Of a DNA stretch of 64,000 bases, positions 566-20,929 are shown one piece after another. The stretch lies in NCBI GenBank assembly GCA_964342785.1, contig CAYFGI010000001.1:38928-102927 (forward strand). The letters are read 5' to 3'. Each line of letters begins with the position of its first letter. The first letter of the stretch is position 1. Source of the stretch: an uncultured Thermoproteaceae archaeon (GTDB lineage Archaea > Thermoproteota > Thermoprotei > Thermoproteales > Thermoproteaceae). Made by a program: the position numbers and the translations under genes. Under the pieces are notes generated by a model that did no database searches, had not been told where the DNA came from, and saw nothing but the letters and a program-made list of their open reading frames with translations.

Positions 566-1165
566 ATGGACGTCTTCGTGTTTTTGCTGGGTCTGTCGGA
601 GCTGGCCTTGTTGGGCTACGCGTCATATCAAGATATTAAGAGCAGGGAGATCGATGCATGGATAATCGCCTTGATGTACATCCCAGCCCTCGCCGCCATG
701 TACCTCTCCTGGAGGACGCCTCTATACGTGATGTCGCCTATCTTGGGCTTGATCTTAGCGTTGGCCATGCGCCTGACCGGAAGCGGCTACGCCGATTCCC
801 TCGTCGTGCTGGCTACATCCTTCTTTCCGCCGTTCTTACCGTTCTTGCCGACGCCCGCCGTGGTGATCATCGGCACGAGCATATCGATCCTAGCGACCAT
901 GTTGTGGATCTTCCTATCGAATAGAGGCAAGCCTTGCAGGATGACATTAGCGCAGAAGTTGACCCACGTCTGCGTAACCAAAGAGGAGGCACTTAGAAAT
1001 AGACATAAATATATCATAGGGCAAGTAAAGGATCTAGAGAGGTATAGACCGCCCGAGGATATAAAGGAGGATTACGTTATAGCCAAATACGGAGTGCCGT
1101 ACGTCGCCCATATGACCCTCGGGTTCGCCCTTTACCTAGTACTTTATTCGTTCAGAGTATTTTAA
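566..1165 (+). CDS. A24-family prepilin/preflagellin peptidase-like polytopic membrane protein
   Basis: 199 aa and very hydrophobic. First Asp context is YASYQDIKSREIDAW, which is PibD/FlaK-like. Second Asp lies in TGSGYADSLVV, a G-x-G-x-x-D-like motif. Confidence 0.55.
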   Translation: MDVFVFLLGLSELALLGYASYQDIKSREIDAWIIALMYIPALAAMYLSWRTPLYVMSPILGLILALAMRLTGSGYADSLVVLATSFFPPFLPFLPTPAVVIIGTSISILATMLWIFLSNRGKPCRMTLAQKLTHVCVTKEEALRNRHKYIIGQVKDLERYRPPEDIKEDYVIAKYGVPYVAHMTLGFALYLVLYSFRVF

Positions 1166-5841: not shown

Positions 5842-6474
5842 ATGCCAGTATATATAATAGATCACCCATACGCCCAACATGTATTAACTAAGCTCAGAGA
5901 CGTCCGCACATCCAGCTTGGAGTTCCGGAAGGGTCTTGTTAAGCTCGGAAGGATTATTGGATACGAGATCGCTAAGACGTTTCCTCGGAGGGAGGTGGTC
6001 GTAAGGACGCCCCTCGGCGAGGCGAAAGGCCTCGTCTTGGAGGATCTGGATAAGGTTATCATCGTCGAGATTCTGAGGGCCGCGATGCCCCTAGTGGAGG
6101 GCCTCTTGAAGGCCTTCCCCGAGGCTAGGATAGGCGTCATAGCGGCCAAGAGGAGGGAGGAAGGAGGCATCATAGATGTAGATATCTATTACGCCAGGAT
6201 TCCAGACGTCGAGAATTCGATCGTCATAGTGGCCGATCCGATGCTGGCTACGGGCGTGACGCTCTCCTCGGCGATAAAGGAAGTGCTTAAACGCGGCATA
6301 CCCAAGAGGCTTTTGACGATATCTGTGATCTCAACGCCTGTAGGCATAGAGAGAGTTCTATCGACGTATCCAAACGCGGAGATATACACCGTGGCTATAG
6401 ACGAGGTTTTAAACAAAGATGGGTTCATAGTGCCCGGCCTCGGCGACGCCGGCGATAGAGCGTTCGGCGGCTAG
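5842..6474 (+). CDS. upp: uracil phosphoribosyltransferase
   Basis: PRPP-binding loop is [14 protein letters not shown]-terminal motif is [18 protein letters not shown]-like ATTATTTAAA lies at 5815-5824. Confidence 0.9.
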
Positions 6475-9341
6475 ATCTTGACGCAGCCCAGAGAGCTGAG
6501 CTCCGTCAGATCGCTGGGACCGCCGACATCGCTGAGAGACCACCAGTTCATAAACGACGACCATAGGGGCACTGGATACTCGACGTAGGAGCCGGATGAT
6601 GAATAATTTATGGCAGGCACTACTCTGGCCGGATCCCAAGGGTATATCTTTAACTTCAAGGCTAAGCTCCAAGGTATATATAAAGAGCGCCCGGGGCAGA
6701 AGTAGCGCAGAACCCATGTGCCGTTTCTACTTAAATAGAAATAGTATCCTTTTATAAATATACTCGAATTACTATCTACATAAATATATATACCACTTAA
6801 GTTTATATATATTTTAGGCTTTATATAAATATATTTGATATCTACACGTAACAACTCGGCCTTGTTCAAACCTACGTCGAAACCTCCGTATGGGCGGAGA
6901 TCGCCGGCTATATACGCGCTTCCGTTTAGACATCCAGCAGTCCAGTACGGATACTGGCCTTGTGATATAACAAGTGGGAGCCAACGCAACAAGAGGCAAG
7001 ACGAGGGGAACCAGCTCGACAGAGCCGGGGGATAGGAGGCACTTCCGTTTAACGACTGACAGAAGAAGGCTGTCATTAAGACGGTTGGCGAGAGTATACG
7101 CGTGAAGAAGTTAGAGAATGTGTAGTTGAGCTCCACCCCCGTCGTATAATAATAGCTCAAGCCCGTGCCTTGCGGCGTGACGAACTCGACCCAGAAGATC
7201 CCGTCTCTAACTGGCGTTAGGAGCCAGCCGGGCGGCGTCGGGACGAACGCGCACCCCGAGGTAGCGTTAGGCAAAGGCACCGCCGAGCCAGGAAGTATCA
7301 AGTAAGGCACATATGGCCTCAACGTAAAGACGCCTAGCGATATGTTGTAAGTAGCCGCTGAAGGCCACGTCGAGCCGGCCCAAGTCCCGTTGACGTACCG
7401 GGCGCCGCTTGCGTTTATATATACGGCCATGTCCACAGGCTCATTGCCTAGCCACATGACGGCTAGACCGTAGGCCGCTCCGCGCAACGCGGCATCGCCG
7501 ACGAACTGCCCGTTCCACCAAGCCTCTCCAGGATCTACGCAGTAGATCGACCTACAGGGTATCAACGGGACCAGAGACCACACCACGACGCCGGACGGCT
7601 TGCCGTTATGGCTGATGAACGTAGAGATGTAGCCGACGGAGCCGCGTTCCGATGGCCACGGCTGTAGCACTGCTACGTATAGATCGGCTGGATAGGCTTG
7701 TCCGCCACCTTGAGGCGATGAAGTGAATACAACTCCCTGCGCGGTCCCTGTGTAGCCCGTCACCGGATCCACGGCTGCCGTCTGCATCGAGTAGTTGCTG
7801 GGTATTAAGGATGCCCATATATAGTCAGGAGAGGAGCGATAGGACCACCTGGAGTACATCATGGCGAGTCCGTAGGTTGACACGCCGTAAGGCGCCGGGA
7901 AGGTCCAGGGGGTTAAAACCGCGGCGGAGCCGAACCCTCCCATCTCAGTCTGTATTAAAGCGCCAGGAAGGTCGCCGTTCCACGCCACGTTATCGCTCGG
8001 CTGAGCCTCCACCACGTATCCACCCGCTCCGTTGTACTTCTCCGGCATGTACTGTATATAATGTCCGCCATATATTAAGTAGCCATATAGAGATGTATAG
8101 AAATCGACGATTCCGCCTTGAGGTATATAGAAATTCAACGAACCTCCTTCCAGCCATATCTCAACGGAGCCTAACCATACGTATGGCTCCCACAAGGCCT
8201 CCGTAGGCAATTCCGCATATGTGTACAGATTGTAGTAATACCATCCGCCGGAGCCCGAGGCCAGAAAAGACAAGGCGAAGGGGCCCATAGAGGGCAGCTC
8301 CTCTGGCATCGCCAAGGCCAGCAGATGGCTTACTGCGGCCGGGAAGTTCCCCCATTGCGATATGTAGGTCTCCGCTATGGTGCGATACGATGCAGGGTCC
8401 AGCAAGGCCACTAAGCCCTCCGAGGTTTGGTTCAACAACACGTAGCTTGTTCTCAACGCGATTACACCGGGGGCATTCGGAGGAGATATAGAGAGCGGCT
8501 TGACCCAATATCTTGGCACGAACCAAGCCTTTAGCTCCACCGAGCTCGGGAAGCCGTTTAGCAAGCTCAAGGAGCCTGAGAGCACGCCGCTAGATCCAGC
8601 CGGGCTCCAGACGAAGTAGCTGGGCGAGTAAGAAGCCTTGAAGGGATTGTCTTGCGGCAAGCCTTGGGCGTCATCGCCTAGGACCAAATCGGTCGAGTTG
8701 ACCTCGGCCTTGACGCCGAGATAACCCTCGTTTATCTGGCCCACCGTAAATCCGCTTAACGTCCTCGGCTCCTTGACGTTCACCGATATATATATGCTAT
8801 CGCTCACGTCGGGGCCTTGAAACCACGTGGTTGGAAGGGAAGGATATGGAGCAGCTAAATCGAGGACCCAGGAGTTGCTCCAGGCGTTATCTATAGGTCC
8901 GCCGTCGCTGACCGAATAGGTTCTTTCGTATATGTTTTTTATAACTGCTAAGGTTCCTTCCTTAATTATTCCAGAACAATTATAAATAACATAGTATTCA
9001 TCATAACTATATTCATAATAATTTATTAATATTGTTATATTAAACATGCCATCTGTCGGCGTTGGATCGCCGGCTATGAACACATCCCCGCCCGTTAGGC
9101 CGTAGCTGGTATGGCCGCCGGATATCGCCACGTAGGTCTCGCCGCCTTCTACATACACCATCGTCTGAGACCCGGCCCTCGGCAAGCCCAGGAAGTTTAA
9201 CGTCACGGCGACGGGCATGGAGACGGCTGGCGGTTGTTGATCTGCCGCCAACAGGGTTGAGTTGATCACAGGACAGGCAGGCGCTTGCACCGCGGCGGTG
9301 ACGATAAGAGATATGCCTAAGAGCAATACCACCCACCTCAT
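6471..9341 (-). CDS. 956-aa secreted, sequon-rich protein, terminal gene of the pilin-like operon (putative filament-associated adhesin)
   Basis: I start the gene at [22 protein letters not shown], a Sec-type signal. Its ATG overlaps the upstream stop (ATGA at 9338-9341). By eye there are at least 15 N-x-S/T sequons, and the protein is W/Y/G/S/P-rich. It has no pilin-type N-terminus and no C-terminal TM segment. Confidence 0.7.
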
Positions 9342-9904
9342 GTAAAACAACTTAGAACAACCGAGACGGGAAAGTCCACAATTTGTATCGCGCGTCCTCT
9401 GAGGACTGCTATTATGTAAACCGCGCTGGGGCTGAGGTAGGAACCTCCCTCCAGCTCGCCCTTCTCCACGCTGGTCGTATTCACGTAAAGCTCCGGTAGA
9501 TAGTCCAGAGTCGACGAGATGGCTATATAGGCTACGTGGACGATCCCTCCGTTGGGAGCCACGGCCGTGGTGCAGTTGATAACGGCTAGGAACAAGGTGT
9601 AGTTCACGGGGCCCCAAACTCTGGAGAGCCTCGCCGCAACGAGGCCGTTGTGGTATATCAAAAACGATCTGTTAACTCCGGTGATGGCGAGAGGAGTGTT
9701 GTTGCAGAATACAGCCCATGGCGTGGCTTGATACTCGGCGCAATATATCGCTACGGCGTTCATGGAGCTGAGTTTAAGTTCGTAAAGTATCTGTGGGTAA
9801 TCTATCTGAGAATAACGCGGCTCTGCCAACGTCACTATGGCGATAGTCCAGGCGACCACGGCTAGCGCCACGAGGGCGTAGGCGATGGACCACTGGGCCT
9901 TCAT
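9338..9904 (-). CDS. pilin-like protein (class III signal peptide candidate)
   Basis: The N-terminus MKAQWSIAYALVALAVVAWTIAIV has K-A at -2/-1 followed by a hydrophobic helix. There are ATGA overlaps at both ends. Confidence 0.55.
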   Translation of the reverse strand: MKAQWSIAYALVALAVVAWTIAIVTLAEPRYSQIDYPQILYELKLSSMNAVAIYCAEYQATPWAVFCNNTPLAITGVNRSFLIYHNGLVAARLSRVWGPVNYTLFLAVINCTTAVAPNGGIVHVAYIAISSTLDYLPELYVNTTSVEKGELEGGSYLSPSAVYIIAVLRGRAIQIVDFPVSVVLSCFT

Positions 9905-10233
9905 GAGCCTATACACGTGGCGTAAGCCACCCCATCGGTGACGTTTAGGCACATAAGGCGTCCACATATTAACCTCTCGCCCGGCGTCAGGGGGCCTCCT
10001 GGTCTATACGCCCAGACATATTGGGCGAGTATTGAGGAGTTGTGTAAGATAAGCCCGCGCACTAAATACGCCGAAGCGTTCATCTGTATTAACGACACGG
10101 GTCCCTTTACGCAAAAGGAGCAGTCGGAGCAAACCGGGGCCTCGGTCTGAGCGGGTATATGGATCAGAAGGACGCTTATTATGATAGATGCTATGGCTAG
10201 GGATATGGCCGCCGTGATCACGTAGAGGTCCAT
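9901..10233 (-). CDS. small membrane-anchored Cys-containing protein of the pilin-like operon
   Basis: MDLYVITAAISLAIASIIISVLLIH has an acidic N-terminus, one TM segment and no K-G/A motif. The gene is coupled to its neighbours. Confidence 0.5.
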   Translation of the reverse strand: MDLYVITAAISLAIASIIISVLLIHIPAQTEAPVCSDCSFCVKGPVSLIQMNASAYLVRGLILHNSSILAQYVWAYRPGGPLTPGERLICGRLMCLNVTDGVAYATCIGS

Positions 10234-10234
10234 A

Positions 10235-11323
10235 TCAGCTCGACGCGATGACTGCGTTGTAGATACGCCAAGCCGCGGCGCAACCGCCGTTGGCGATCCC
10301 TACGGCTATATCGTATTGACCCGCCGACGGTGGGGAGAAGCCAAATGCGGCTAGGTCGTAGCTATAAGATGCGGTAAAGGCTCCTGGCACCTGCCAAATT
10401 ACTTTCAACGTGTCGCTGGACGCGTTGTAGATAACGTAAGTTGTCCAGATGGAGCCCGCCGGCCATATCTTGCCGGAGTTAAAGCCCGTGGGGACGACGG
10501 CGCCGAGCCCGCCCGTCGAGTTCATGATAGCCAGCTCTATCGACCCGTCCTCCTTCCCGTAATCGTAAGGGTTAAACTGGACGAATATCTGTAACGAACT
10601 GCCCGCGGGCACATAATCGGCTCCGCCGAAGGGCAGTATGCGCAGACCTTCGTCCGATGGAGCTACCAACGTCTTGGCGTCTTTCGGCACGAATAAAGAG
10701 ATGTATAGCCCATCTGCGAGACACGTAGATTCGTTGTAGCCCCATTCCACCTCCACGGCAAGGTAGCCTCCTCTCCAGTAGATGGGTATGGTCGTGTAGT
10801 TGTAGGAATTACCTACTGGGCTTAGCGACAAGGGGACTTGCGACGAATATACGTTCCCCGCCGGCATCTGGCCGCCATAGTCGTTCGGCTGAGCGGCCGC
10901 GAGAATTCCGTTCGTTATTCTCACGACGCTCTTCCCGCTTATGCCTAACAACGTAAAGCCGTACTCCCCCCGCGATGGAAACCACAGCTGGAAGGCGCAG
11001 GTGACGACGGATCCGGGGCCATATGGCTTGAGGAACCTAGCCGAGATGACGCCTAGCGATGTATCGCCCAGACAGTATAACGGCTTTGCGTACCATCTGG
11101 ATCCATCGGGCGCATTATACATCAAGGCTACTCCGTCTAAAGAGCCTCTTAGCACAGCGATGGACGCGATCAATACTCCGTTCTGCTCTGTTATAGTCGC
11201 CGAGGCGCTCAACGAGTTCATGCCGCCGATAGCTATGTTTATTACCGCAAACGCTAGGAGGGACGCGACCGCGATCGCCGCCCCTATTACCATGAACGAA
11301 GTTATGGAGATTTCTGCCTTCAT
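10235..11323 (-). CDS. pilin-like protein with C-terminal legume (L-type) lectin-like domain
   Basis: Start is MKAEISITSFMVIGAAIAVASLL, by ATGA overlap with the upstream stop at 11320-11323. Lectin-like blocks are CLADGLYISLFVPKD, LQIFVQFNPYDYGKEDGSIELAIMNS, TTYVIYNASSDTLKVIW and IAVGIANGG..AAWRIYN. Confidence 0.6.
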   Translation of the reverse strand: MKAEISITSFMVIGAAIAVASLLAFAVINIAIGGMNSLSASATITEQNGVLIASIAVLRGSLDGVALMYNAPDGSRWYAKPLYCLGDTSLGVISARFLKPYGPGSVVTCAFQLWFPSRGEYGFTLLGISGKSVVRITNGILAAAQPNDYGGQMPAGNVYSSQVPLSLSPVGNSYNYTTIPIYWRGGYLAVEVEWGYNESTCLADGLYISLFVPKDAKTLVAPSDEGLRILPFGGADYVPAGSSLQIFVQFNPYDYGKEDGSIELAIMNSTGGLGAVVPTGFNSGKIWPAGSIWTTYVIYNASSDTLKVIWQVPGAFTASYSYDLAAFGFSPPSAGQYDIAVGIANGGCAAAWRIYNAVIASS

Positions 11324-11790
11324 GAAATACATCTAACGACTAAGATTCTCCCCATGGATGACAGCACGCCCGTCGCGCAGCCCTTAGCCGCGCTCCAAGG
11401 CGGCGGGCACCAGAGGCCGGTATAGGGATCCGGCCCTATTTTGAGGGGATTCGTCGTCGAGATAGGTTCCCCGTTCAACAAGAAGGAGGAGTTATAGGTA
11501 CAGTTGTATCCTCCTGGCCACAAGTAGAATGTGGCGACCCAAGTGCCGTTTATGTTCCCCATCATGGCTGCGATATAGGGCGAGGGAGTTCCGGCGTCTA
11601 TAGCGATGAAAACGCCGCCAGAGCGGAACACATGTATCCAACGCGATGGGGCTCCCTGCGGTTGAGATAACGGCGCGATCTGCGCCCAATGGGGCAAAGA
11701 ACTTATTTTAAGTAAAGCGAATAGGAACAACACCGTTAATGCCGAGAAGAAGATCGCGGCGGCTACCAATGAAGTCACCTGGCCCTTCAT
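11320..11790 (-). CDS. pilin-like protein (class III signal peptide candidate)
   Basis: Start is MKGQVTSLVAAAIFFSALTVLFLFALL (K-G then a hydrophobic helix). ATGA overlaps lie at 11787-11790 and 11320-11323. The longer ORF-track N-terminus is Arg-rich and overlaps the upstream gene. Confidence 0.55.
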   Translation of the reverse strand: MKGQVTSLVAAAIFFSALTVLFLFALLKISSLPHWAQIAPLSQPQGAPSRWIHVFRSGGVFIAIDAGTPSPYIAAMMGNINGTWVATFYLWPGGYNCTYNSSFLLNGEPISTTNPLKIGPDPYTGLWCPPPWSAAKGCATGVLSSMGRILVVRCIS

Positions 11791-12110
11791 CTCAGAGGCG
11801 TTATATACAACTTCCCGTCTGGCGTGGTCCCTACGATCACCACACCGGGCACGCCCCCCACGGCGGGTCTCCCGCCCACGCGATAAATTCTCGATGCGGG
11901 GACGAAGAGACAGCCTATGACGCAACCGTCGGATGTGCACGAGATCTTCCCGAACGCCACAACGAGGAACGCCGAACCGTTGTGTTGAAGCGCCAACCTA
12001 GTCGCTTCGCATAAACTCCACGAGGTAGAGTTGGCGAGGGATGTAGACGCTAAAAGGATCGCTACGCTTGATATCATCAAGAACACCGCTATCTCTAAGA
12101 GCTCCTCCAT
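11787..12110 (-). CDS. small membrane-anchored protein of the pilin-like operon
   Basis: MEELLEIAVFLMISSVAILLASTSL has an acidic N-terminus and one TM segment. It starts 4 nt after the upstream stop. Confidence 0.5.
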   Translation of the reverse strand: MEELLEIAVFLMISSVAILLASTSLANSTSWSLCEATRLALQHNGSAFLVVAFGKISCTSDGCVIGCLFVPASRIYRVGGRPAVGGVPGVVIVGTTPDGKLYITPLR

Positions 12111-12114
12111 GGAA

Positions 12115-12393
12115 TTATCTACACGTTAGGTTCAACACGTTTATCGAAAGGCCGAAATGTAGCGATCTCGATATCTCGATCCAACTCCCGTTAACATAAA
12201 GCCAGCAGGTCATGCCCACCGTTATGTGCTTAAGGCTATTTAGATCGCCGTGTAGAGTGTAGTTATAGTACTGGGGCCAGTAACGATATATTGCGGATAG
12301 CGATGGCGAGGAGTATGTAACCGGTTGTATCAAGGCCAACACGGCTAACGCCAACGCCGTGATGACCACTATGACGTATACGTCTAGATCCAT
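12115..12393 (-). CDS. small membrane-anchored protein, first gene of the distal pilin-like operon
   Basis: N-terminus is MDLDVYVIVVITALALAVLALIQ. An AGGAGGGG Shine-Dalgarno-like tract lies just upstream of the ATG. Confidence 0.5.
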   Translation of the reverse strand: MDLDVYVIVVITALALAVLALIQPVTYSSPSLSAIYRYWPQYYNYTLHGDLNSLKHITVGMTCWLYVNGSWIEISRSLHFGLSINVLNLTCR

Positions 12394-12417
12394 ACCACCC
12401 CTCCTAGGTTGTTTCTC

Positions 12418-12705
12418 ATGGAAATCAAGGTTAGGTGTTACACGAGTCCTCTAAAGAGGGGCTGGGGGCTTATGTTGCGCAAACCAAAACCCGTCTTGTT
12501 AGTAGGCGTGAACTCCGTGCATGGCTTCTTCATGCTAGAGCCCATCTGGGCCGTGTTTTTAGGGTACGACATGAAGGTAATCGACGTCGTTCTGTTGAGG
12601 CCGTGGAGGCGCCACAAGGAGCCGGAGGCCAGGCACGTGTTAGAGCTACCTGCAGGAGAGAAGCCTCCCAAAAAAGGGGAATTTGTTAGGGTTGTTTGCC
12701 TTTAG
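12418..12705 (+). CDS. DUF192-like protein
   Basis: LKRGWGLMLRKPK...HGFFMLEPIWAVFL...LLRPW...ARHVLELPAGE follows the DUF192 pattern (GLM.R ... FM..P ... P ... A.yVLElpaG). It lies antisense in the gap between two pilin genes. Confidence 0.6.
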   Translation: MEIKVRCYTSPLKRGWGLMLRKPKPVLLVGVNSVHGFFMLEPIWAVFLGYDMKVIDVVLLRPWRRHKEPEARHVLELPAGEKPPKKGEFVRVVCL

Positions 12706-13160
12706 GTCGCGCCTGCCGTGAATATACCTCTAGCCAGCTGTATAGTCCTGCCGCTCGAGTCGACTCCGTATATGACATAGCTGTACTGGACTCCATAAGT
12801 CAGATTGTTAAGCGTGAAGTAGCACACGGCGGACTGACCCGTGTAGAGCTGAAGGCTCGACGAAGGAGATTCCTGTAGCCCGTTGGTGCCGTTATAGTAG
12901 CACGTGCCGTTTATGGGCGGTCCCGGCGTCCCCCCTTGTTGCCAGTATTGTAGATATAACGCGTTGAGCTTGCCGTTAAGCACTTGAACCTCCACCGTCA
13001 TCACCTTACTGCCCACAGTGGCTATCACTTGGGCACGGGTGTTGGCGGAAGCCGATTGGCCCATGCGCATCATCGCCAGAGCTATTATTGCGGCGACCGC
13101 TATCACCACAGCTATTATGATCAACGCATCTATGCCCCCAGCTTGACCTTTTAACTTCAT
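12702..13160 (-). CDS. type IV pilin/archaellin-like protein (candidate major subunit)
   Basis: MKLKGQAGGIDALIIIAVVIAVAAIIAL closely resembles archaellin/archaeal pilin class III signal peptides (K-G-Q then a GI(D/G)xLI hydrophobic helix). An alternative ATG lies at 13175. Confidence 0.7.
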   Translation of the reverse strand: MKLKGQAGGIDALIIIAVVIAVAAIIALAMMRMGQSASANTRAQVIATVGSKVMTVEVQVLNGKLNALYLQYWQQGGTPGPPINGTCYYNGTNGLQESPSSSLQLYTGQSAVCYFTLNNLTYGVQYSYVIYGVDSSGRTIQLARGIFTAGAT

Positions 13161-13165
13161 GTAAG

Positions 13166-13690
13166 TTATGAACATTTCAACAAGATCACAACGACCGGAA
13201 GGGGCGAGCTGTTCATCGAGGTGGAGGTCTCCGAGATCTTATATCCGCCCGAGCAAGTAGGATATACGTAGTACAGAGTCCCGTTCGAGAAATAGGGAGG
13301 GATCACCGCGGCGCTTCCGACGAGCAACGTGTTGTTCTCAGCAGTGTAGTACGCCCCATATACAGGGGAGGCGTTCGCGCCGAGCGAGACGGAGTATAGC
13401 CACCCCTCAGGCGGTATACACATACTACATCCAGGAGGCGAGGGGCCGGGCATTAAGACATAGCTCGTTCCCCTCGCCTCGTAGTGCACCCTCACGGCGT
13501 ATATAGGGGTGTAGTCTGGAAGCGCGATAGGTCTCAATGCCGTGATCGCCGTAGCGGCCTCGAGAGCTGGATACGACGCCCTAGTTCCGTAGAGAACGCG
13601 ATACGAGAATAAAGCCGCCATGGCTATCACGGCCAGCGCAGCGGCCATCGTCACGATCTGTTTTAAGGACCAGTAGCCCTTCACGCCCAT
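13166..13690 (-). CDS. pilin-like protein (class III signal peptide candidate)
   Basis: N-terminus is MGVKGYWSLKQIVTMAAALAVIAMAALF, with N-x-S/T sequons further on. It overlaps the platform gene end by 10 nt. Confidence 0.6.
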   Translation of the reverse strand: MGVKGYWSLKQIVTMAAALAVIAMAALFSYRVLYGTRASYPALEAATAITALRPIALPDYTPIYAVRVHYEARGTSYVLMPGPSPPGCSMCIPPEGWLYSVSLGANASPVYGAYYTAENNTLLVGSAAVIPPYFSNGTLYYVYPTCSGGYKISETSTSMNSSPLPVVVILLKCS

Positions 13691-14904
13691 AGGGACCAGA
13701 GCGATATGACTAAATAGTAAAACGACGTGCCGGCCGCGCCCCCAGCCAGAAGGCCCGCCCAGCTCCCTCTGGACGGCAACAACACGACGGCGATGAAGCT
13801 GGCTACCATAAGGGATAACAACTGGGCGGTTGTGTATTCCACCTCGTAGGGGGGAAGCGGCGATAACACCGTCTGGCCCGTGGAGGGCACTAGCTGCAAC
13901 GCGGCTGTGGATATAGCTAGGGAATAGACCAATATAATCGAGGCGGCTAGATACACGGCGATGAATATAGCGGTCAACGAAGTGACTCTCTTAAGCCCTC
14001 TCTCCCTCTCGCTGAGGAGCGTCTGTATTAGATCGACCGCTTCGAGGCTGGGCCCCGCCCAGCTGATCGCGTTGAACATAGCCCTGGCTAGGTTGAACAT
14101 AAGGGATGGTATCTCGTAGAAATAGGCCACCATCCACGCGGTCTTGTAGGTAGAGGAGACCTCTCTCAGCGCCAAGTCGGCTGGGACTCCTTGCGATATA
14201 CGCGACGCGAAATCTCTCAGCATAGCTGGTATCTCGTGGGGAAGCTTGAACCACCCGATTCGTTTCTTGTACGCCAGCCACGCCAGCAGGACGGCGCCCG
14301 ACACGAGGATCCCCACGGTGAGCGGGAGACCCCAGAGAGACGAGATGTAAACGGCCAGGGAGCCTGCCGCCAAAGCCATCGGCAAGGCGGGGCCGTAGAC
14401 CTTAACCGGCGAGAGATCCTTAGGCATAGCCCTGTATATCAGAAGCCCTACGAGCAACGAGAAGAGACCCGCCATGGCTAACAACGAATACATGTCGATC
14501 GGCAACAAGCCATAGGCGTAGAGGAAAAGAAGTAAAAGCGGCGCGAACATCAAGCTCGATAACGACGAAAAAAGCCCGAGGAATTGCTGCATCGAGGCCT
14601 CGAGGCGGCCCAGCGCTATCGATTTAATCGATTGGAGGAAGGACTGGACTAAGACTTGTTTAGGCACCCCGCCCTCCTCTTGAGATGTCGCGAACCCGTA
14701 CTGCCTCACTACGGCAAGTTTGTCGGAGGAAAGCACCGCAGCTGGATTAGGCGTGAGGCTCGCCAGGAGTAGCTCGCGTGAATGTTTCTCGTCTATATCG
14801 CTGGTGGTCGCCGCCGTACGTCTTAATGCCTCGGCCGAGGAGAGATGTTGGAGATATGTGGCGAAGATAGGGGCTATGTTTATGTAGAATTCCTCTCGGT
14901 TCAT
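13681..14904 (-). CDS. TadC/FlaJ/PilC-like (T2SSF-type) polytopic membrane platform protein
   Basis: 407 aa with multiple TM helices. The cytoplasmic segment EIPAMLRDFASRISQGVPADLALREV resembles the T2SSF domain motif. There is an ATGA overlap with the upstream gene. Confidence 0.7.
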   Translation of the reverse strand: MNREEFYINIAPIFATYLQHLSSAEALRRTAATTSDIDEKHSRELLLASLTPNPAAVLSSDKLAVVRQYGFATSQEEGGVPKQVLVQSFLQSIKSIALGRLEASMQQFLGLFSSLSSLMFAPLLLLFLYAYGLLPIDMYSLLAMAGLFSLLVGLLIYRAMPKDLSPVKVYGPALPMALAAGSLAVYISSLWGLPLTVGILVSGAVLLAWLAYKKRIGWFKLPHEIPAMLRDFASRISQGVPADLALREVSSTYKTAWMVAYFYEIPSLMFNLARAMFNAISWAGPSLEAVDLIQTLLSERERGLKRVTSLTAIFIAVYLAASIILVYSLAISTAALQLVPSTGQTVLSPLPPYEVEYTTAQLLSLMVASFIAVVLLPSRGSWAGLLAGGAAGTSFYYLVISLWSLWA

Positions 14905-15314
14905 CTACGCTTGAATAGTTGCAGTACGCTTTTCTTGGCGCCGTTTTCCTCTACCACGAAGTATTCGGGCGCCTCTAGCACCTTTATGAGGTGACCTAAT
15001 ATGTGGCTTCTTCTGACCGAGTTGTTCGCCGCTATGGGTAATTCCTCCATTATCTGGGACGGCGTCAGACCTGCCTTGTGCCTTTTGATTATATAGTCCA
15101 CGACGGTAGATAGGGAGAAGCCCTTATCCATGACCTCCTTAACCACCAGCCAGTCGGCAGGAGTCAAGGCGATCCCCTCCTTCTCTAGCTTCTTCGCGGC
15201 CGATATAAGCCTCGAGGGCCTTACGCCGATAGTTTTCGCTATATCGCACAACTCCTCCGCCGCCTCTCTTGTGTAGCCCTCCTCTATCAACTTCCTGCAC
15301 TCGTTCATTTGCAT
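14901..15314 (-). CDS. hypothetical soluble helical protein of the filament locus
   Basis: 137 aa with no recognised motif. It is translationally coupled on both sides. Confidence 0.5.
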   Translation of the reverse strand: MQMNECRKLIEEGYTREAAEELCDIAKTIGVRPSRLISAAKKLEKEGIALTPADWLVVKEVMDKGFSLSTVVDYIIKRHKAGLTPSQIMEELPIAANNSVRRSHILGHLIKVLEAPEYFVVEENGAKKSVLQLFKRR

Positions 15315-15568
15315 CTCTCCAGAAGCGATATAGCCAGCCTAGCCACCACGCCGGCATCTCCCTCGGTCTTAGCCACCTCCTTGAGCACTGCCTTCAGAAG
15401 ATCGCCGTTAAGCATATCCACTACCTCGCGGGGCGCCTTCTCCAACGATTTAAGGAACGAGAGAGCCCAATCGTCCTTGTCTATCTTCTCAACGATGGAC
15501 AGGGGTCCGGCTAGATCTAGGCCTAGGTCGTCCTCTCCGTTGTTTTTCTCCTTGACTTTAAGCTTCAT
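15305..15568 (-). CDS. hypothetical small acidic protein of the filament locus
   Basis: I start it at MKLKVKEKNNGEDD (ATG 15568). The upstream ORF-track extension has no support. Confidence 0.4.
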   Translation of the reverse strand: MKLKVKEKNNGEDDLGLDLAGPLSIVEKIDKDDWALSFLKSLEKAPREVVDMLNGDLLKAVLKEVAKTEGDAGVVARLAISLLERCK

Positions 15569-15765
15569 GTAAATTACCTTGCCTCCAGACGGTTGGAGCT
15601 TCCCTTGGGCTTGGCCGGTGTCTGCCCCTAGATGAGGGCTTGCGCCTACACGCCAACAGTTAAGCCACAGAGACAAATATGTGGGTTAAGCGGAGCGGCT
15701 AGGCCAGGAGAGATGAATTTGTTAATGACGAGCCGCTCGATGAAATGAACAAGACGCCAATGCCG

Positions 15766-17343
15766 TCATTTTTCCTGACTGTACCCGAACCTAAGGGCTT
15801 CGTCTACTATCGAGATCTTCCTACGGGAGAATATCTTCAATAAAGCCTCGCGGGCCTCCAGAGGTTCCAGCTCCTTAGAGGCCACGGCCTTGAGGAGGCC
15901 AGCCCTAAGCCTTATCTCGTCGACGATCTTAGTATCGTAGGTCGCCTTGGTGTATACGTTTAGTAACGTCAAGACGTCGGCGGCGGATCCCTCCACGACC
16001 TCGCCTTTTTCTGCTATCAACGCCCTCCATTCCTTCAGGTAACGCACGCCCCCCGAGGCCCCGAGCTGTAGTATCATGGTGTTGGCCAAGGCCTCCACGG
16101 GGGCGCCCGATCTAGTTATACGGAGTAACGCATCGTGTATAGTATCGGCGTGCATAGTCGTGAGACCGCCGTGACCGGTCAGTTTATACGAAACCAACGT
16201 GTTAAGTTCTTGGCTCGTCCTTGCCTCCGCGAGCGCAACCACCGTGGCCATGGTGCCGTATCGAAGGGCTTGATCGAGGGCATCTGCGAGTTTAGACTCG
16301 GAGGGCACCGATATGTGGAGGATCTGGTTCTCCAGAGGAGCCCATATCTCCCTAGCCCCTCTCTCCACGACCACCACTTGGTACCATGGAGGTATGAAGT
16401 AGAGCAATAAATTCAGTTGGGTGGTCTTCCCAGTGCCCATAGCCCCCGAGAAGATGACGGTCCATCGGGCCTCTGCCGCTATGGTGGCTAGGGCGAACAC
16501 CTCGAGACCGGAGAGATAGTACCCCTCCATCCGCTCCGTCGAGGCCTTGGGCCCCTGGGGAGGCTCGTATACGTTTATAAGCCCTCTGGACGGCCGCGGC
16601 GCTTCGCTCATTTTCCTTACGTTGACATTGTACTCAAGTAGATCCGCCGCTATGCGTATCCTGTAGACTGGGTCCTCCCTGGTCTGGAAGGGCCTCTCGA
16701 GAGTCAAGCCTGGTATCAACTTCTTCACCAATATCGGCATGAAGGCCTCGGGGATCACCACGTTGGTGAGCATACGCGCCTCGTTGCGCACCGCAACCAC
16801 GCGCCTAAAACGGCCGAGCTCCACCATCTCGGCGTATATCTTGTCGAGAAGCTCCGTCGGGTTTTTCGGCAACTCCGTCCACCTCCCGGGGGGCGCCAGA
16901 GGCTGAGGTACTACTATCTCGGTCAATAGATCGTCTCTCATCAAGGCCTCCAACACGCCGTAGCCTCCAAAATCGCCATGTCCGGTCCAACGATCCAACA
17001 GGTAATGAACTAACTCTCTGTGCTCTCTATACGTCCTCAAGGCGTTTCTATACCACCGCCATCCCCCGACCCCCCGGCTAGGCGACAGCGCAACTAAGGC
17101 ATCTTTGACGGCCTTGTCGTACTCCCCATAGTCAGGCGGCACCGCGCCGCGCATAACCACCAGCGCTAGGGCTTTTTCCAATAGATCTGGCAATTGGGGA
17201 TCTGCGACAACGTATTCGCCGTCCTCAGTTATACAGAGATCCGTGGCGTAGTTACGGTAGACTATTACCCCTCTCTTGGCTAGAAGACATCTATCCAACA
17301 GAGATCTATCCGTCTTTGCGATTAACGCGCCCGCAAGAGACAT
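15766..17343 (-). CDS. type II/IV secretion-family ATPase (FlaI/VirB11/TadA-like), divergent
   Basis: Walker A is FSGAMGTGKTTQLN. Asp-box-like VVVVERGAREIW, Walker B-like ATVVALAEARTSQE and His-box-like TGHGGLTTMHAD follow. The N-terminal domain of about 290 aa is unassigned. Confidence 0.85.
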   Translation of the reverse strand: MSLAGALIAKTDRSLLDRCLLAKRGVIVYRNYATDLCITEDGEYVVADPQLPDLLEKALALVVMRGAVPPDYGEYDKAVKDALVALSPSRGVGGWRWYRNALRTYREHRELVHYLLDRWTGHGDFGGYGVLEALMRDDLLTEIVVPQPLAPPGRWTELPKNPTELLDKIYAEMVELGRFRRVVAVRNEARMLTNVVIPEAFMPILVKKLIPGLTLERPFQTREDPVYRIRIAADLLEYNVNVRKMSEAPRPSRGLINVYEPPQGPKASTERMEGYYLSGLEVFALATIAAEARWTVIFSGAMGTGKTTQLNLLLYFIPPWYQVVVVERGAREIWAPLENQILHISVPSESKLADALDQALRYGTMATVVALAEARTSQELNTLVSYKLTGHGGLTTMHADTIHDALLRITRSGAPVEALANTMILQLGASGGVRYLKEWRALIAEKGEVVEGSAADVLTLLNVYTKATYDTKIVDEIRLRAGLLKAVASKELEPLEAREALLKIFSRRKISIVDEALRFGYSQEK

Positions 17344-17344
17344 C

Positions 17345-18046
17345 TTACTCCTTTATCCGTTTGACCAGAAGCGAGATGGCCTCCTTGTTCTTCCTATCGC
17401 TGAGGATCGCCTTGTAGATCCCCTCGGCGGAATAATCGGATGGCATCTTAACCCTTGTGAGGAACGCGTTCACCATCTTTATGCCCGGCGTTTTCTCATC
17501 GCCCTTCTCGAGCATATTAGCGACTACGAGAGAAGCGTATCGCATATATCTGCCGTATATCTGCATCTTGATGTCGGCTATCTTCGTGACTATCCTCCTG
17601 TCAGCAACGAAGTACATTAAGGCCTTGAGCTTACGCTGAAAGGCCTCCAACCACGTCAACTGCATGGCCTTAGGAGTATCGACGATTATCGTGTCGACGG
17701 GAAGACGCTCCTCGGCAACGGCGTCCGGAAGAGCCGTGAGTACCTCGAACAAAGCGTCGAAAAGATCCGCGTCGCCTATCTTGCCGGATTGGTAGAGGAC
17801 GGCCGCCTCGTAACCCGGCACCACGTAGAGGTTCGGCTTAACTTTATGCACGTACATATCCTTGCCGTAACTGCCGGCGAGCCATCCGGGCTTCTTGGGG
17901 ACGCTGAATATAGATGAAAGATCCGCCTTCTCCCAATCGGCGTCCACTATTAACACCCTCTCCTTCTCGAAGGCCGTGGCCACGGCCAGCGTGGTCTTCC
18001 CAACGCCGCCGTCCACCGAATAAATGACGGCGAATTTAGTCCTCAT
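17345..18046 (-). CDS. ParA/MinD-family P-loop ATPase (TadZ/FlhG-like role possible)
   Basis: I start it at MRTKFAVIYSVDGGVGKTTLAV. This is a deviant Walker A with Asp where the signature Lys normally sits. VLIVDAD follows. The stop is 1 nt from the ATPase ATG. Confidence 0.75.
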   Translation of the reverse strand: MRTKFAVIYSVDGGVGKTTLAVATAFEKERVLIVDADWEKADLSSIFSVPKKPGWLAGSYGKDMYVHKVKPNLYVVPGYEAAVLYQSGKIGDADLFDALFEVLTALPDAVAEERLPVDTIIVDTPKAMQLTWLEAFQRKLKALMYFVADRRIVTKIADIKMQIYGRYMRYASLVVANMLEKGDEKTPGIKMVNAFLTRVKMPSDYSAEGIYKAILSDRKNKEAISLLVKRIKE

Positions 18047-18383
18047 GGAATAACTTATCCATCGCGTTGAGCCTATAGGCCGCCATGTAGGCCTCGACGA
18101 ATTCAATTATCCTATCGAGCGCAACGCGTAACGTCTCCTCCGACGCTGACGTTATCACGGTCGAGGTCCTCCAGCCTATCTTGGCGGCGACAGGGGGGCT
18201 CATCGATATGTAGACAACGATAGAATCGTCGTACGGGTTCACGGCCATCTTGTAGCCGTCGATATACTCGACGACGGTCCTCTTTAAATGTAGGGGTGAT
18301 CCTCTATATTTGATCTCAGCCTTATATCTTCCCCTCCCGATGCCCACAAGGCGCACCTCGAAGTCGCCTCGTCTATACCTCAT
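18036..18383 (-). CDS. hypothetical protein of the filament locus
   Basis: 115 aa. It overlaps both neighbours by 11 nt. No motif recognised. Confidence 0.45.
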   Translation of the reverse strand: MRYRRGDFEVRLVGIGRGRYKAEIKYRGSPLHLKRTVVEYIDGYKMAVNPYDDSIVVYISMSPPVAAKIGWRTSTVITSASEETLRVALDRIIEFVEAYMAAYRLNAMDKLFHED

Positions 18384-19068
18384 ATCTGTTGAGTAGATCT
18401 ATGAGCTCTCTCCTGAACTCCGGTATAGAGAGACCTCTTATAACCCTCACGACTATCGCCCTATCCTCCTCGTCTAATTCGGCTAGGTTAAAACGACGAG
18501 ATCTCCTCTCTGCGTGTTTCCCCTCCTTGAAGATAGCGAGGGCCAACGAGTCTAGATCGAGCGATTTCTCCTCACATAGGCCGCATAGGCACCTCAAGGA
18601 TCTGGCCGAGGAGCCGGACGGCACAGGCGCGAACCTAGAGATGACGGATTTTATGCTTCTAGCTAGAGGGATGTCGTCTTGCTCGAGAGATCTTAACTCG
18701 GGGCATACGTATTCCTTAAGGAAACGCCCGTTTATGCTGACGCCGAGATCCCTTAGGACCACGCTCACTGCCGTAAAGGGATACTGCGGCTCCCCCGCTA
18801 TATCTATATACAACACCTTAAGGCTGGGCACCAGCTCGGCTAACATCTCGTGTAGCTTCGGAGATAGGACATAGCGAGCGCCCTCCTTTCTGAAGGAGAA
18901 GAGGGGGAGGGGGCTTATACCTCCGTATATAGACGACGTCAGATAAAGCAGTTTGTCCTCCAAGACTGTTGGAACCACCTCGGGGTATGGATCCAACACG
19001 ACGGCATCTTTTAAATCCCTCAGCATATCCCTAAGGCTGGATATATCCAACAGATCGGCTTTTATCAT
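18373..19068 (-). CDS. hypothetical protein of the filament locus
   Basis: I start it at MIKADLLDISS, by ATGA overlap with the upstream stop at 19065-19068. It contains the Cys cluster RCLCGLCEEK. Confidence 0.5.
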   Translation of the reverse strand: MIKADLLDISSLRDMLRDLKDAVVLDPYPEVVPTVLEDKLLYLTSSIYGGISPLPLFSFRKEGARYVLSPKLHEMLAELVPSLKVLYIDIAGEPQYPFTAVSVVLRDLGVSINGRFLKEYVCPELRSLEQDDIPLARSIKSVISRFAPVPSGSSARSLRCLCGLCEEKSLDLDSLALAIFKEGKHAERRSRRFNLAELDEEDRAIVVRVIRGLSIPEFRRELIDLLNRYEV

Positions 19069-19616
19069 ATCTCTACCATCTCGTATTCGCATCGAGGCAT
19101 TATATCTACGAGTATCCTGGACATGAAGGGCTTCCAAGCAAGCTCGCGGAGCTCGATATCTGCGTCGTCGGCCGCCAACAGCCACATATCGGCGTAGGGC
19201 CCCTCCAGCTTGACCCCATAGCGGGAGTAGGCGACGAGGTTTCGCGCCGCTGTGCGCACAGCTTTGGCTCTGATCCTCTCGTCGTAAAACATCCTATATC
19301 CATATTCGGCGCCCCACTCCATCATGAACTTCATGCAGCCAGTGTACCTCAGCTTATCTATCCTCAAGGCGCCTTTAGGCGAACAGGGAGCCCTCACGAC
19401 AGAGGGAGCCCTCAAGGCGTCCCTAGAGAGTTCGAAAAGCTTAACGAAGGCGGCGCAAGCCCTACGCCTAAGGTCGGCCCCCGGAACATCCGACAGAGCT
19501 CTCAGAACCCAGCTATTGGCTATCTTGAAGAAAGCGCTGAGGGCGTACGGTTCATCGTTAAGAGCCAGAAGCGCGTGTACGGCGTCCGCCATCCTGTAGA
19601 TGGATATATGCTCCAT
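19065..19616 (-). CDS. hypothetical protein, first gene of the filament locus
   Basis: 183 aa with an AT-rich spacer upstream. No motif recognised. Confidence 0.5.
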   Translation of the reverse strand: MEHISIYRMADAVHALLALNDEPYALSAFFKIANSWVLRALSDVPGADLRRRACAAFVKLFELSRDALRAPSVVRAPCSPKGALRIDKLRYTGCMKFMMEWGAEYGYRMFYDERIRAKAVRTAARNLVAYSRYGVKLEGPYADMWLLAADDADIELRELAWKPFMSRILVDIMPRCEYEMVEI

Positions 19617-20248: not shown

Positions 20249-20929
20249 ATGGACAGAAACGGCGTACTTATCGCCGTCTCGGTGTTCCTGATCACCGTCG
20301 CCGTGTTGGTCTTCGCCGTAGGGCCCTACAGGAAGGGCCCGGTGTATAAGCCATACTGGGAACAAGTAAACATCACGGCCTTGGCGATACAAGGGCAAAA
20401 GATAGGCGTTGTGGTCTACAGAGGCGAGGGGGGCTGGGCCATATTCGGGTATCAAGATAACGTGACCATGCCGCAAAGAGGGGAGCTATTAAACGTGTTA
20501 AGACAACTAATATCTGAGGCCGAGGCGAGGGGGTATACCGTCATCTTGGCGCCGTGGGGAGCCGACAACAAGACCAACGCGCTTCTAACGGCGCTTTACA
20601 ACGGCGTCATCTCGCCGCAACAATACCTTAACGGCTACACCAATATCTCCAACACGGCTATAAACTCCTCGTCGATACAAGCCGCCAAGAACTACGCGCT
20701 AACCTTGGCCCAAACCCTCGGGTCCTACACGGCGTATCCCGGAATACCGCAAGTGCCCTCAAGCCCACCCATAATCTACGCGTATCTGGTGTGGAAAGGC
20801 TGTTCCTATCCTGTCTATGAGCCCTACGAGCCGCTTAGGGATTCTAACTACACCAGCTGGGCCTTCTGGGTGGGTAACGCCATAGCAAATCTGCCGACCT
20901 TAGTGGGGCAACCCGGCTGTAGTCAATAG
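20249..20929 (+). CDS. membrane-anchored extracellular protein, hypothetical
   Basis: N-terminal TM segment VLIAVSVFLITVAVLVFAV, then several N-x-S/T sequons. Confidence 0.5.
   Translation: MDRNGVLIAVSVFLITVAVLVFAVGPYRKGPVYKPYWEQVNITALAIQGQKIGVVVYRGEGGWAIFGYQDNVTMPQRGELLNVLRQLISEAEARGYTVILAPWGADNKTNALLTALYNGVISPQQYLNGYTNISNTAINSSSIQAAKNYALTLAQTLGSYTAYPGIPQVPSSPPIIYAYLVWKGCSYPVYEPYEPLRDSNYTSWAFWVGNAIANLPTLVGQPGCSQ

Follow-up and report, generated by a model that had tools for sequence, protein, structure and literature searches.

Does a run of 17 genes in an uncultured Thermoproteaceae archaeon encode a type IV filament machine that has escaped description, or does it belong to a class already on record? 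The genes lie head to tail on the minus strand, from 19616 to 6471, of a 64,000-nt stretch of contig CAYFGI010000001.1 (assembly GCA_964342785.1, forward-strand positions 38,928 to 102,927). This stretch is the whole of the DNA analysed and is referred to here as the window; the genes are named g1 to g17 in minus-strand order (Table 1). A sequence-only reading of the window had proposed a type IV filament machine unlike the archaellum or the Aap and Ups systems of Sulfolobus, and possibly undescribed. The distinction held, also with regard to Sulfolobus Bas, the assembly ATPase g5 scoring 29.7 bits against an NCBIfam FlaI cutoff of 550 and 32.3 bits against a BasE cutoff of 1000. The novelty did not. 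The g5 product is 53-54% identical, over 98% of its length, to proteins of Pyrobaculum oguniense and Pyrobaculum neutrophilum that are encoded beside the arCOG05608 MinD genes of subclade 4G, and because the ATPase and the accessory set both fall in that subclade, which has been catalogued and not experimentally characterised, the locus is not undescribed. We consider it very probable that the locus is the Thermoproteus version of a Thermoproteaceae-specific 4G type IV filament (TFF; type IV pilus-like) system. As such it would be a complete, intact Thermoproteus example of a class catalogued since 2016 and never studied at the bench.

Membership in subclade 4G

Makarova, Koonin and Albers (2016, PMC4858521) described 'subclade 4G' in the Pyrobaculum-Thermoproteus group, with arCOG05608-05619. 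The set consists of a FleN/MinD ATPase (arCOG05608), a diverged ATPase (arCOG05609), a diverged TadC (arCOG05611), PilA-family major pilins (arCOG05612), many Cys-rich predicted minor pilins (arCOG05613-05619), a large signal-peptide protein (arCOG05616) and two small alpha-helical intracellular proteins. In the tables of that study a 237-aa MinD-like protein of P. oguniense (GI 379003561) is arCOG05608, and GI 379003562 is among the ATPases grouped with Thermoproteus tenax and Thermoproteus uzoniensis in the 4G list (Table S2). The mapping of GI to protein for this 4G ATPase was made from consecutive GI numbering; in the P. oguniense locus a 237-aa CbiA-like gene stands directly upstream of a 510-aa ATPase (P0020), itself 54% identical to g5. 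The window encodes an arCOG05609-clade ATPase, an arCOG05608 MinD, arCOG05611, arCOG05612 and arCOG05616 proteins, and Cys-rich pilin-like proteins. What has been published on 4G agrees with the locus gene by gene. A 2026 preprint (10.64898/2026.04.22.720090) likewise treats arCOG05609 as specific to 'subsystem 4G', with MinD co-occurring. In the 2011 genome paper of T. tenax (PMC3189178), three operons, including TTX_0962-0973, were listed as putative type IV pilus (T4P) systems, one of which probably corresponds to the present locus.

The ATPase carries much of this assignment. g5 passes the Pfam T2SSE model (45.7 bits, cutoff 24.9) over residues 285-424 only, and its nearest solved relatives are Archaeoglobus fulgidus GspE (2oap, 1.6e-9) and FlaI (6e-7). 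Aligned to A. fulgidus GspE 2oap, its sequence (GAMGTGKTT ... TGHGGLTTMHAD) has a Walker A motif (GAMGTGKTT), the Walker B Glu (AEAR) and a His box (TGHGGLTTMHA), while the Asp box is partly degenerate (ERGAREI versus EDTREI). These motifs point to a catalytically plausible PilB-type ATPase; the secretion-family assignment made from the letters is borne out, and the hexameric secretion ATPase of the PilB/GspE/FlaI family that marks the TFF superfamily is found in g5. The NCBIfam equivalogs VirB11, TrbB, BasE, ComGA, FlaI and TadA gave 12-39 bits on g5 against cutoffs of 250-1000, and g5 is a divergent family member outside every curated NCBIfam model it matched. Among its 77 homologs, the named ones belong to Thermoproteus (72-83% identity) or Pyrobaculum (~52-55%), the sole named exception being one partial sequence labelled Thermofilum sp.

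Gene order supports the same placement. We compared the locus with those of three Thermoproteus metagenome-assembled genomes (MAGs; L001, L002 and L007, identities being taken from L001 and L002) and, gene by gene, with four Pyrobaculum loci (P. oguniense L003, P. neutrophilum L004, the aerophilum-like L005 and the MAG L006); a fifth fetched Pyrobaculum locus, from Pyrobaculum arsenaticum (L010), is decayed. All 17 genes are collinear in the three Thermoproteus MAGs at 50-90% identity, with g10, the best conserved of the extracellular genes, at 88-90%, g4 at 85-87%, g5 at 80-83%, g7 at 76-81% and g8 at 74-75%, the rest lying at 50-73%. A scan of genome contigs with the ATPase alone returned two close Thermoproteus MAGs, and the closest cultured relative of the locus is T. 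uzoniensis.

The accessory set recurs in Pyrobaculum, where a shared block runs from the MinD-like gene through the divergent ATPase, a small protein, a 109-112-aa protein and a 398-aa membrane protein (TadC-like) to the PilA-family pilin, and is followed by cysteine-rich pilin-like genes and a secreted protein of 949-1032 aa. By phmmer and hhalign, g4, g5, g7-g13 and g15-g17 are orthologous to Pyrobaculum 4G genes, and g6 matches weakly and by position. The Pyrobaculum loci differ in that g9, g11 and g12 stand at the 3' end, whereas in the window they directly follow the platform or pilin genes; in addition, g14 has no counterpart in arCOG05613, g1-g3 are not detectably homologous to the Pyrobaculum upstream trio, and the window locus contains an antisense DUF192-like gene.

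The gene that ends 1 nt upstream of g5 was read from the letters as encoding a ParA/MinD-like ATPase, and it corresponds to the FleN/MinD component (arCOG05608) of subclade 4G. As a single sequence g4 stays below the Pfam CbiA cutoff (22.3 bits, cutoff 25.4); a profile of eight g4 orthologs matches archaeal MinD structures (Pyrococcus furiosus 1g3q at 4e-5, 1ion at 1e-4), which places g4 in the MinD superfamily. g4 is 44-47% identical to the MinD-like genes that immediately precede the 4G ATPase gene in Pyrobaculum. The signature lysine of MinD and ParA proteins (GKGGxGKT) works across the dimer in ATP hydrolysis. In g4 the Walker A motif reads DGGVGKTT, with Asp12 in place of this lysine in 8/8 orthologs. 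Because the signature lysine is Asp in all orthologs, g4 is probably an ATP-binding, weakly hydrolysing scaffold, as has been reported for TadZ. Significant similarity between TadZ and arCOG05608 was found by comparison of hidden Markov models (HMM-HMM; Denise et al. 2019, PMC6668835). A Rhizobium 'AAA family ATPase' encoded beside CpaF was tried as a comparator for g4 and rejected, as it is not of the TadZ type.

How far does the resemblance to Tad/Flp (type IVc) pili extend? In both systems the neighbour of the assembly ATPase is a ParA/MinD-family ATPase whose Walker A is atypical, and several pseudopilin-like genes are present; when g5 was compared with plasmids by tblastn, its longest matches were to CpaF. 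The mature Pyrobaculum major pilin also agrees with Tad/Flp in having Glu at +5 (RG/LTTVE, the slash marking the cut site), whereas that of the window differs, with Asp at +6 (KG/QAGGID). Unlike Tad/Flp, the locus has one platform gene (g8, 407 aa) rather than a TadB/TadC pair, and the 233 aa of g4 comprise the ATPase domain only, with no room for the N-terminal receiver-like domain of TadZ. There are no secretin genes at the locus, no search having been aimed at the RcpA/TadD family models. The combination of TadB plus TadC, CpaF/TadA and a receiver-domain TadZ was thus not found, and g5 scored 29.6 bits on the TadA-family model TIGR03819 (cutoff 373).

With the archaellum (Arl/Fla) the locus shares the ATPase family, a presumed platform and a pilin-type subunit with a helix and a beta-sandwich. 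It differs in that Pfam and NCBIfam searches of the 17 products gave no match to FlaH (ArlH), FlaF/G (ArlF/G), FlaX (ArlX) or FlaCDE (ArlCDE), and in that the ATPases cluster apart. The Sulfolobus Aap, Ups and Bas systems belong with it to clade 4 of the archaeal T4P ATPases of Makarova, but are simple loci of three to five genes that lack a MinD-like gene, and their accessory genes are absent from the locus. The sequence-only reading had anticipated both of these absences, the second for Aap and Ups.

The archaellum comparison also bears on the proposal that the locus is a motility or positioning apparatus, namely the filament behind the motility of Pyrobaculum species without arl genes, with the MinD-like g4 serving for polar placement. 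Pyrobaculum aerophilum and Pyrobaculum calidifontis are reported to be motile yet lack archaellum operons, P. aerophilum (or a close relative) has a 4G locus, and the archaella of Haloferax are positioned by MinD-type ATPases. Against these observations stand the missing FlaH, FlaF/G, FlaX and FlaCDE homologs and a FlaI score far under the cutoff, as well as the flagellar-like filament of P. calidifontis, which comes from another, KaiC-containing locus. In the structure-based tree of the 2026 preprint (10.64898/2026.04.22.720090) the 4G ATPases lie apart from archaellum ATPases, and its authors judge such systems 'likely unrelated to motility'. The suggestion of motility or positioning, raised from the letters, gained no positive support, and we rate it as very improbable.

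Pilin-like subunits and a proposed adhesive pilus

If the locus is a 4G system, what would it build? The predicted major pilin, g10, is 90% identical to its T. uzoniensis ortholog TUZN_0635, and phmmer matches it to Pyrobaculum pilins at 4e-18 to 2e-26. Its leader is invariant in orthologs, [KR]LKG/QAGGIDALIIIAVV, and of class III type, with QAGGIDALII after the cut site. An AlphaFold2 model (pLDDT, the predicted local distance difference test, 82.9) has an N-terminal helix at residues 9-33 followed by an 8-strand beta-sandwich, a predicted fold that corresponds to the archaeal pilin/archaellin body plan. A class III signal joined to a globular beta domain, as expected of a TFF pilin, is thus present in g10.

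Every extracellular product from g9 to g17 has one N-terminal hydrophobic segment, an even number of Cys residues (2-10) and between 2 and 17 NxS/T sequons. g9, with one N-terminal transmembrane (TM) segment, 4 Cys and 4 sequons, matches a Pyrobaculum family of 146-170 aa (hhalign 97.4%). For g11, g12, g13, g15 and g16, phmmer matches to Pyrobaculum genes range overall from 4e-4 to 1e-18: g11 (2 Cys, 3 sequons) matches genes of 89-93 aa at E ~2e-9, g12 (4 Cys) genes of 98-99 aa at 1e-8, g13 its orthologs at 1e-18 to 4e-13, and g15, in which a CSDC motif is conserved, genes of 106-365 aa at 2e-15 to 5e-12. The N-terminus of g14 resembles g10-type pilins (phmmer ~4e-6), and its residues 156-354 match the C-terminal end of phrog_17320, a viral family of 1373 positions, at E 5e-8. 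Despite this match, tblastn of g14 against phage records gave nothing, and hhalign found no match between g14 and the Pyrobaculum arCOG05613 protein (304-326-aa gene).

The large secreted protein read from the letters was confirmed as such. g17 has a Sec-type N-terminus ending AVQA/P, 17 sequons and 10 Cys, and aligns with the 949-1032-aa Pyrobaculum proteins (hhalign 95.9%); residues 681-745 give weak Ig-like matches. The arCOG05616 protein has been described as Ig-rich and adhesin-like (2026 preprint, bioRxiv 10.64898/2026.04.22.720090).

From these components an adhesive pilus can be proposed by analogy, and we lean modestly towards it as the mechanism. A PibD-like peptidase, for which the open reading frame (ORF) at 566-1165 is the candidate, would first cut the 5-residue basic leader off g10. 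The g5 hexamer would then dock on the g8 platform and drive polymerisation of g10. The seven other pilin-like proteins (g9 and g11-g16) would act as low-abundance subunits that prime assembly and build a tip or base complex, and this complex would display the Sec-exported g17, along with g14's C-terminal domain, as adhesins in a PilY1-like manner. g4 would be a scaffold in the manner of TadZ, positioning or licensing the machine, and g6, g7 (with its possible helix-turn-helix, HTH) and the lineage-specific g1-g3 may be cytosolic accessory or regulatory factors. The tip analogy is drawn from the bacterial minor-pilin/PilY1 complex of type IVa pili (T4aP) and the GspH-K tip of the type II secretion system (T2SS), which follow the same logic of minor subunits plus a large Sec-exported non-pilin; no sequence relationship connects them to the locus, and the likeness is one of analogy only. 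Taken jointly, 4G identity and an adhesive pilus form the explanation that we favour overall and regard as likely.

The same inventory could instead describe a short pseudopilus or bindosome-like surface assembly with no long fibre, along the lines of the Sulfolobus bindosome or of the pseudopili of the T2SS. In that case the role of the ATPase and platform would be to insert and array the pilin-like proteins within a wide quasi-periplasm, or else to expel or display g17 and g14. The number of pilin-like genes (eight per machine), the bulky C-terminal domains of several of their products (362 aa in all for g14, and up to 365 aa for g15/g16 of Pyrobaculum) and the presence of a large Sec-exported partner suit such an assembly. 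Moreover, the filaments solved from Pyrobaculum come from other loci, none being assigned to 4G, and one source of solved filaments, P. arsenaticum, has a truncated 4G ATPase in its type-strain genome. However, the small size of g10, its high conservation and its PilA-like character are what a polymerising major pilin would show, the locus has no linked genes for substrate-binding proteins or ABC transporters, and the BasE model reaches only 32 bits of the required 1000. We therefore consider a pseudopilus unlikely and retain the adhesive pilus as the preferred reading.

Evidence weighing against a 4G adhesive pilus

Several results weigh against this preferred reading, beginning with the literature. 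The T4P repertoire of Thermoproteaceae is the most diverse on record for archaea, and for 4G neither a filament nor a function or structure is reported; a full-text literature search gave no experimental paper on these arCOGs and no filament assigned to 4G.

No T2SSF signal was obtained for g8, the presumed platform, in Pfam or NCBIfam, an eight-sequence g8 profile had no significant T2SSF match among PDB sequences, Foldseek of the AlphaFold2 model against the PDB gave no T2SSF match, and hhalign to a haloarchaeal T2SSF protein and to Rhizobium TadC yielded probabilities below 1%. The gene is firmly tied to the 398-aa genes of Pyrobaculum (36-38% identity, phmmer 2e-68 to 6e-78), and arCOG05611 is annotated as 'diverged TadC' (Makarova et al. 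2016, PMC4858521). The model (pLDDT 87.6) contains two successive helical units, each with 4-5 short helices, one helix of ~50 residues and at least 2 further helices, which are TM segments by hydropathy scan. Such a layout would fit a duplicated platform protein but does not prove one; comparison of the N-terminal and C-terminal halves of g8 gave no internal sequence repeat. The platform label is accordingly presumed, from the topology, the position next to the ATPase, the two-repeat architecture of the model and the published arCOG05611 annotation. Of the T2SSF/TadC-like polytopic platform proposed in the sequence-only reading, the polytopic topology stood, whereas T2SSF/TadC membership found no support in profile and fold searches.

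For g10, Foldseek returned generic fibronectin type III (FnIII)/Ig-like folds and no solved archaeal pilin, and phmmer against PDB sequences gave nothing significant. The leaders raise a further difficulty. Five products had been read as carrying class III signals with K-G or K-A starts; the starts are as described, but a conserved canonical signal is confined to g10, while the other pilin-like genes have two-residue M[KR][GA] leaders, with putative cleavage, or none.

Comparison among orthologs shows that these leaders come and go. The MGVKG start of g9 is not conserved, as the L001 and L007 orthologs appear to begin MSFAMRQ and MFAIRQ, so that the g9 leader appears to toggle even inside Thermoproteus. 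Members of the g13 family start M[KR]GQ in Thermoproteus; the P. oguniense ortholog has a 17-residue basic leader ending KLRG, then VED, and those of three other Pyrobaculum genomes have no leader and start ME[DH]. In Thermoproteus the proteins of the g16 family begin M[KR][AG]QWS; in four Pyrobaculum genomes they begin MWS (MWS.AYG), and no alternative upstream start was found there. Orthologous minor subunits thus switch between leader and no leader from one genome to another. In view of this toggling in the g13, g16 and g9 families, the three single-TM proteins with acidic N-termini that had been noticed from the letters, which are g11, g12 and g15, are best interpreted as pilin-like subunits made without a leader; for g11 no in-frame upstream start is possible. 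A bolder proposal would combine these traits, making 4G a polar, MinD-positioned motility filament of Pyrobaculum without arl genes in which several natively leaderless subunits are incorporated without peptidase processing. We regard it as distinctly improbable; if it were true, leaderless assembly would be an unusual rule for a type IV filament.

Processing of g10 would call for a prepilin peptidase. The candidate for a PibD-like enzyme is encoded outside the operon, at 566-1165, by the sixth gene past g17, and its scores are below every curated threshold: 17.8 bits for Peptidase_A24 (cutoff 26.5), 18.1 for Arc_PepC_II (cutoff 29.9) and 26.9 for NCBIfam FlaK (E 3.2e-6, cutoff 330), with no PDB match. 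Two Asp residues, Asp23 in YQDIKSREID and Asp77 in GSGYAD, are plausibly spaced. By gene count the candidate lies at the offset equivalent to TTX_0979, provided that TTX_0973 is the g17 ortholog; T. tenax TTX_0979 has been listed as a possible prepilin peptidase (PMC3189178).

Disrupted copies of the ATPase gene were found in two related genomes. In the Thermoproteus MAG locus L007 (JAVZXD010000001, 1983-11119) the 4G ATPase is split into pieces of 211 and 372 aa by a ~7.4-kb insert with TnpB/Cas12f-like ORFs and several minus-strand genes, the remainder of the locus being intact. In P. arsenaticum DSM 13514 (CP000660; L010 10001-21284) the ATPase is truncated past ~residue 365 of g5, and the 427-aa product is cut before Walker B (about residue 350), so that Walker B and the His box are missing. 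The truncated gene is followed by unrelated genes on the minus strand, among them a 1437-aa ORF and Rad51/KaiC-like fragments; the upstream trio and the MinD-like gene are kept. Because the ATPase gene is disrupted in these two genomes, the 4G system is dispensable, or counter-selected, in some lineages.

These disruptions, together with the very fast evolution of most components, are what would be expected if the locus were a relic in decay that no longer has a function in this organism. The window argues otherwise: none of the 17 ORFs is broken and their junctions are translationally coupled, the ATPase motifs are preserved, and identity between Thermoproteus genomes stands at 76-90% for g4, g5, g7 and g10. 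Decay in the present organism is therefore exceedingly improbable.

Gene order, cytosolic proteins and neighbouring genes

An ORF check of the window recovered all 17 minus-strand genes, each intact, at the positions and with the N-termini given in the sequence-only reading, which had also described the junctions as mostly ATGA or short overlaps. Ten of the 16 junctions do overlap, six by the 4 nt of ATGA and four by 10-11 nt; another four are gaps of 1-5 nt. The two wide junctions are g5-g6 (197 nt) and g10-g11 (308 nt). A TATA-like TTTTTAA lies ~25 nt 5' of the g1 ATG, a position that suits a leaderless crenarchaeal first gene.

Table 1. Positions and descriptions of the locus genes and of the candidate peptidase gene in the window
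Gene	Coordinates	Strand	Length (aa)	Description
g1	19065..19616	-	183	Cytosolic, first operon gene
g2	18373..19068	-	231	Cytosolic orphan
g3	18036..18383	-	115	Cytosolic
g4	17345..18046	-	233	MinD/FleN-like P-loop ATPase, arCOG05608 ortholog
g5	15766..17343	-	525	Divergent PilB/FlaI/GspE-family assembly ATPase, arCOG05609 clade
g6	15305..15568	-	87	Small acidic cytosolic
g7	14901..15314	-	137	Cytosolic, arCOG05610 ortholog, possible N-terminal helix-turn-helix
g8	13681..14904	-	407	Polytopic membrane protein, presumed platform, arCOG05611
g9	13166..13690	-	174	Pilin-like, start MGVKG, arCOG05617 ortholog
g10	12702..13160	-	152	Predicted major pilin, start MKLKGQAGG, arCOG05612, PilA family
g11	12115..12393	-	92	Leaderless pilin-like, acidic start MDLDV, arCOG05618 ortholog
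g12	11787..12110	-	107	Leaderless pilin-like, acidic start MEELLE, arCOG05619 ortholog
g13	11320..11790	-	156	Pilin-like, start MKG then Q, arCOG05614 ortholog
g14	10235..11323	-	362	Pilin-like, start MKA then E, large C-terminal domain
g15	9901..10233	-	110	Leaderless pilin-like, start MDLYV, 6 Cys
g16	9338..9904	-	188	Pilin-like, start MKAQWS
g17	6471..9341	-	956	Sec-secreted, arCOG05616 ortholog, candidate adhesin
Candidate class III signal (prepilin) peptidase	566..1165	+	199	Membrane protein, outside operon

Five soluble proteins (g1, g2, g3, g6 and g7) had been left unassigned, and they do prove to be cytosolic and without a passing family match; for g1, g2, g3 and g6, searches of Pfam, NCBIfam, PHROGs and PADLOC returned nothing. 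The upstream trio g1-g3 is lineage-specific. g1 is 63-66% identical in L001 and L002, conservation of g3 is confined to Thermoproteus (50-57% identity), and a HMMER scan of 1.84 billion cluster representatives with g2 gave 3 true relatives. g2 has an ATGA overlap with g1, and g3 shares 11 nt with each of g2 and g4. The Pyrobaculum trio measures ~222, 195 and 99 aa, and hhalign of g1-g3 against the upstream genes of Pyrobaculum, including P. oguniense, gave a weak hint for g1 and the first gene of that trio (42.8%) and nothing else, with no reliable similarity to the trio. On the outcome of these family, hhalign and HMMER searches, a separate defence or toxin-antitoxin module made up of g1-g3 is unsupported. 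In P. oguniense the three-gene set of other Pyrobaculum is replaced by six genes upstream of the MinD-like gene (L003 6213-9261; 289, 251, 117, 117, 119 and 120 aa), and several of these products are rich in Cys.

The invariant Asp in place of the MinD signature Lys, the sub-threshold peptidase candidate at 566-1165, the disruption of the ATPase gene in two related genomes, the switching of leaders between orthologous minor subunits and the lineage specificity of the upstream trio go further than the literature consulted, as do the differing N-termini of the window and Pyrobaculum major pilins and the g5-g6 spacer. The degenerate Walker A of the MinD-like protein, the toggling leaders, the cytosolic trio, the disrupted ATPase and the peptidase candidate provide handles for study, and they leave the 4G classification unchanged.

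The two remaining cytosolic genes have positional or sequence counterparts in Pyrobaculum. g6, 55-57% identical in Thermoproteus, is the positional equivalent of a 72-108-aa Pyrobaculum gene (hhalign weak, 39%) and probably corresponds to either of the 'small alpha-helical intracellular proteins' that Makarova 2016 describes. g7 matches the 109-112-aa Pyrobaculum genes at phmmer E 8e-19 to 9e-14; its HTH hints are weak (Pfam HTH_24/HTH_7 at E 0.02-0.07, and Lrp/AsnC regulators at E ~0.03 with the ortholog profile).

The locus had been read as lying on a single strand, which is right for the 17 genes and misses an antisense gene. A 98-aa plus-strand ORF at 12409-12705 occupies the g10-g11 gap, convergent (tail to tail) with g10, and matches positions 1-82/96 of the DUF192 profile below threshold (20.5 bits, cutoff 27). 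All three related Thermoproteus loci contain this ORF in intact form, and it may divide the locus so that two transcription units result. In P. oguniense an antisense ribbon-helix-helix (RHH) gene lies within the pilin block (L003 14978-15220). The other wide junction, the 197-nt non-coding g5-g6 spacer (15569-15765), has no second copy in the window or the fetched loci, and in each of the other three Thermoproteus loci the two genes abut or overlap. No RNA family was detected when the entire window was scanned with Rfam.

Upstream of g1, a Usp gene is divergent from the operon, and just past it, at 20249-20929 on the plus strand, lies a gene for a 226-aa protein that starts MDRNGVLIAVSVFLITVAVLVFAV and has a single N-terminal hydrophobic segment and no family match. 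Its product could be another surface protein.

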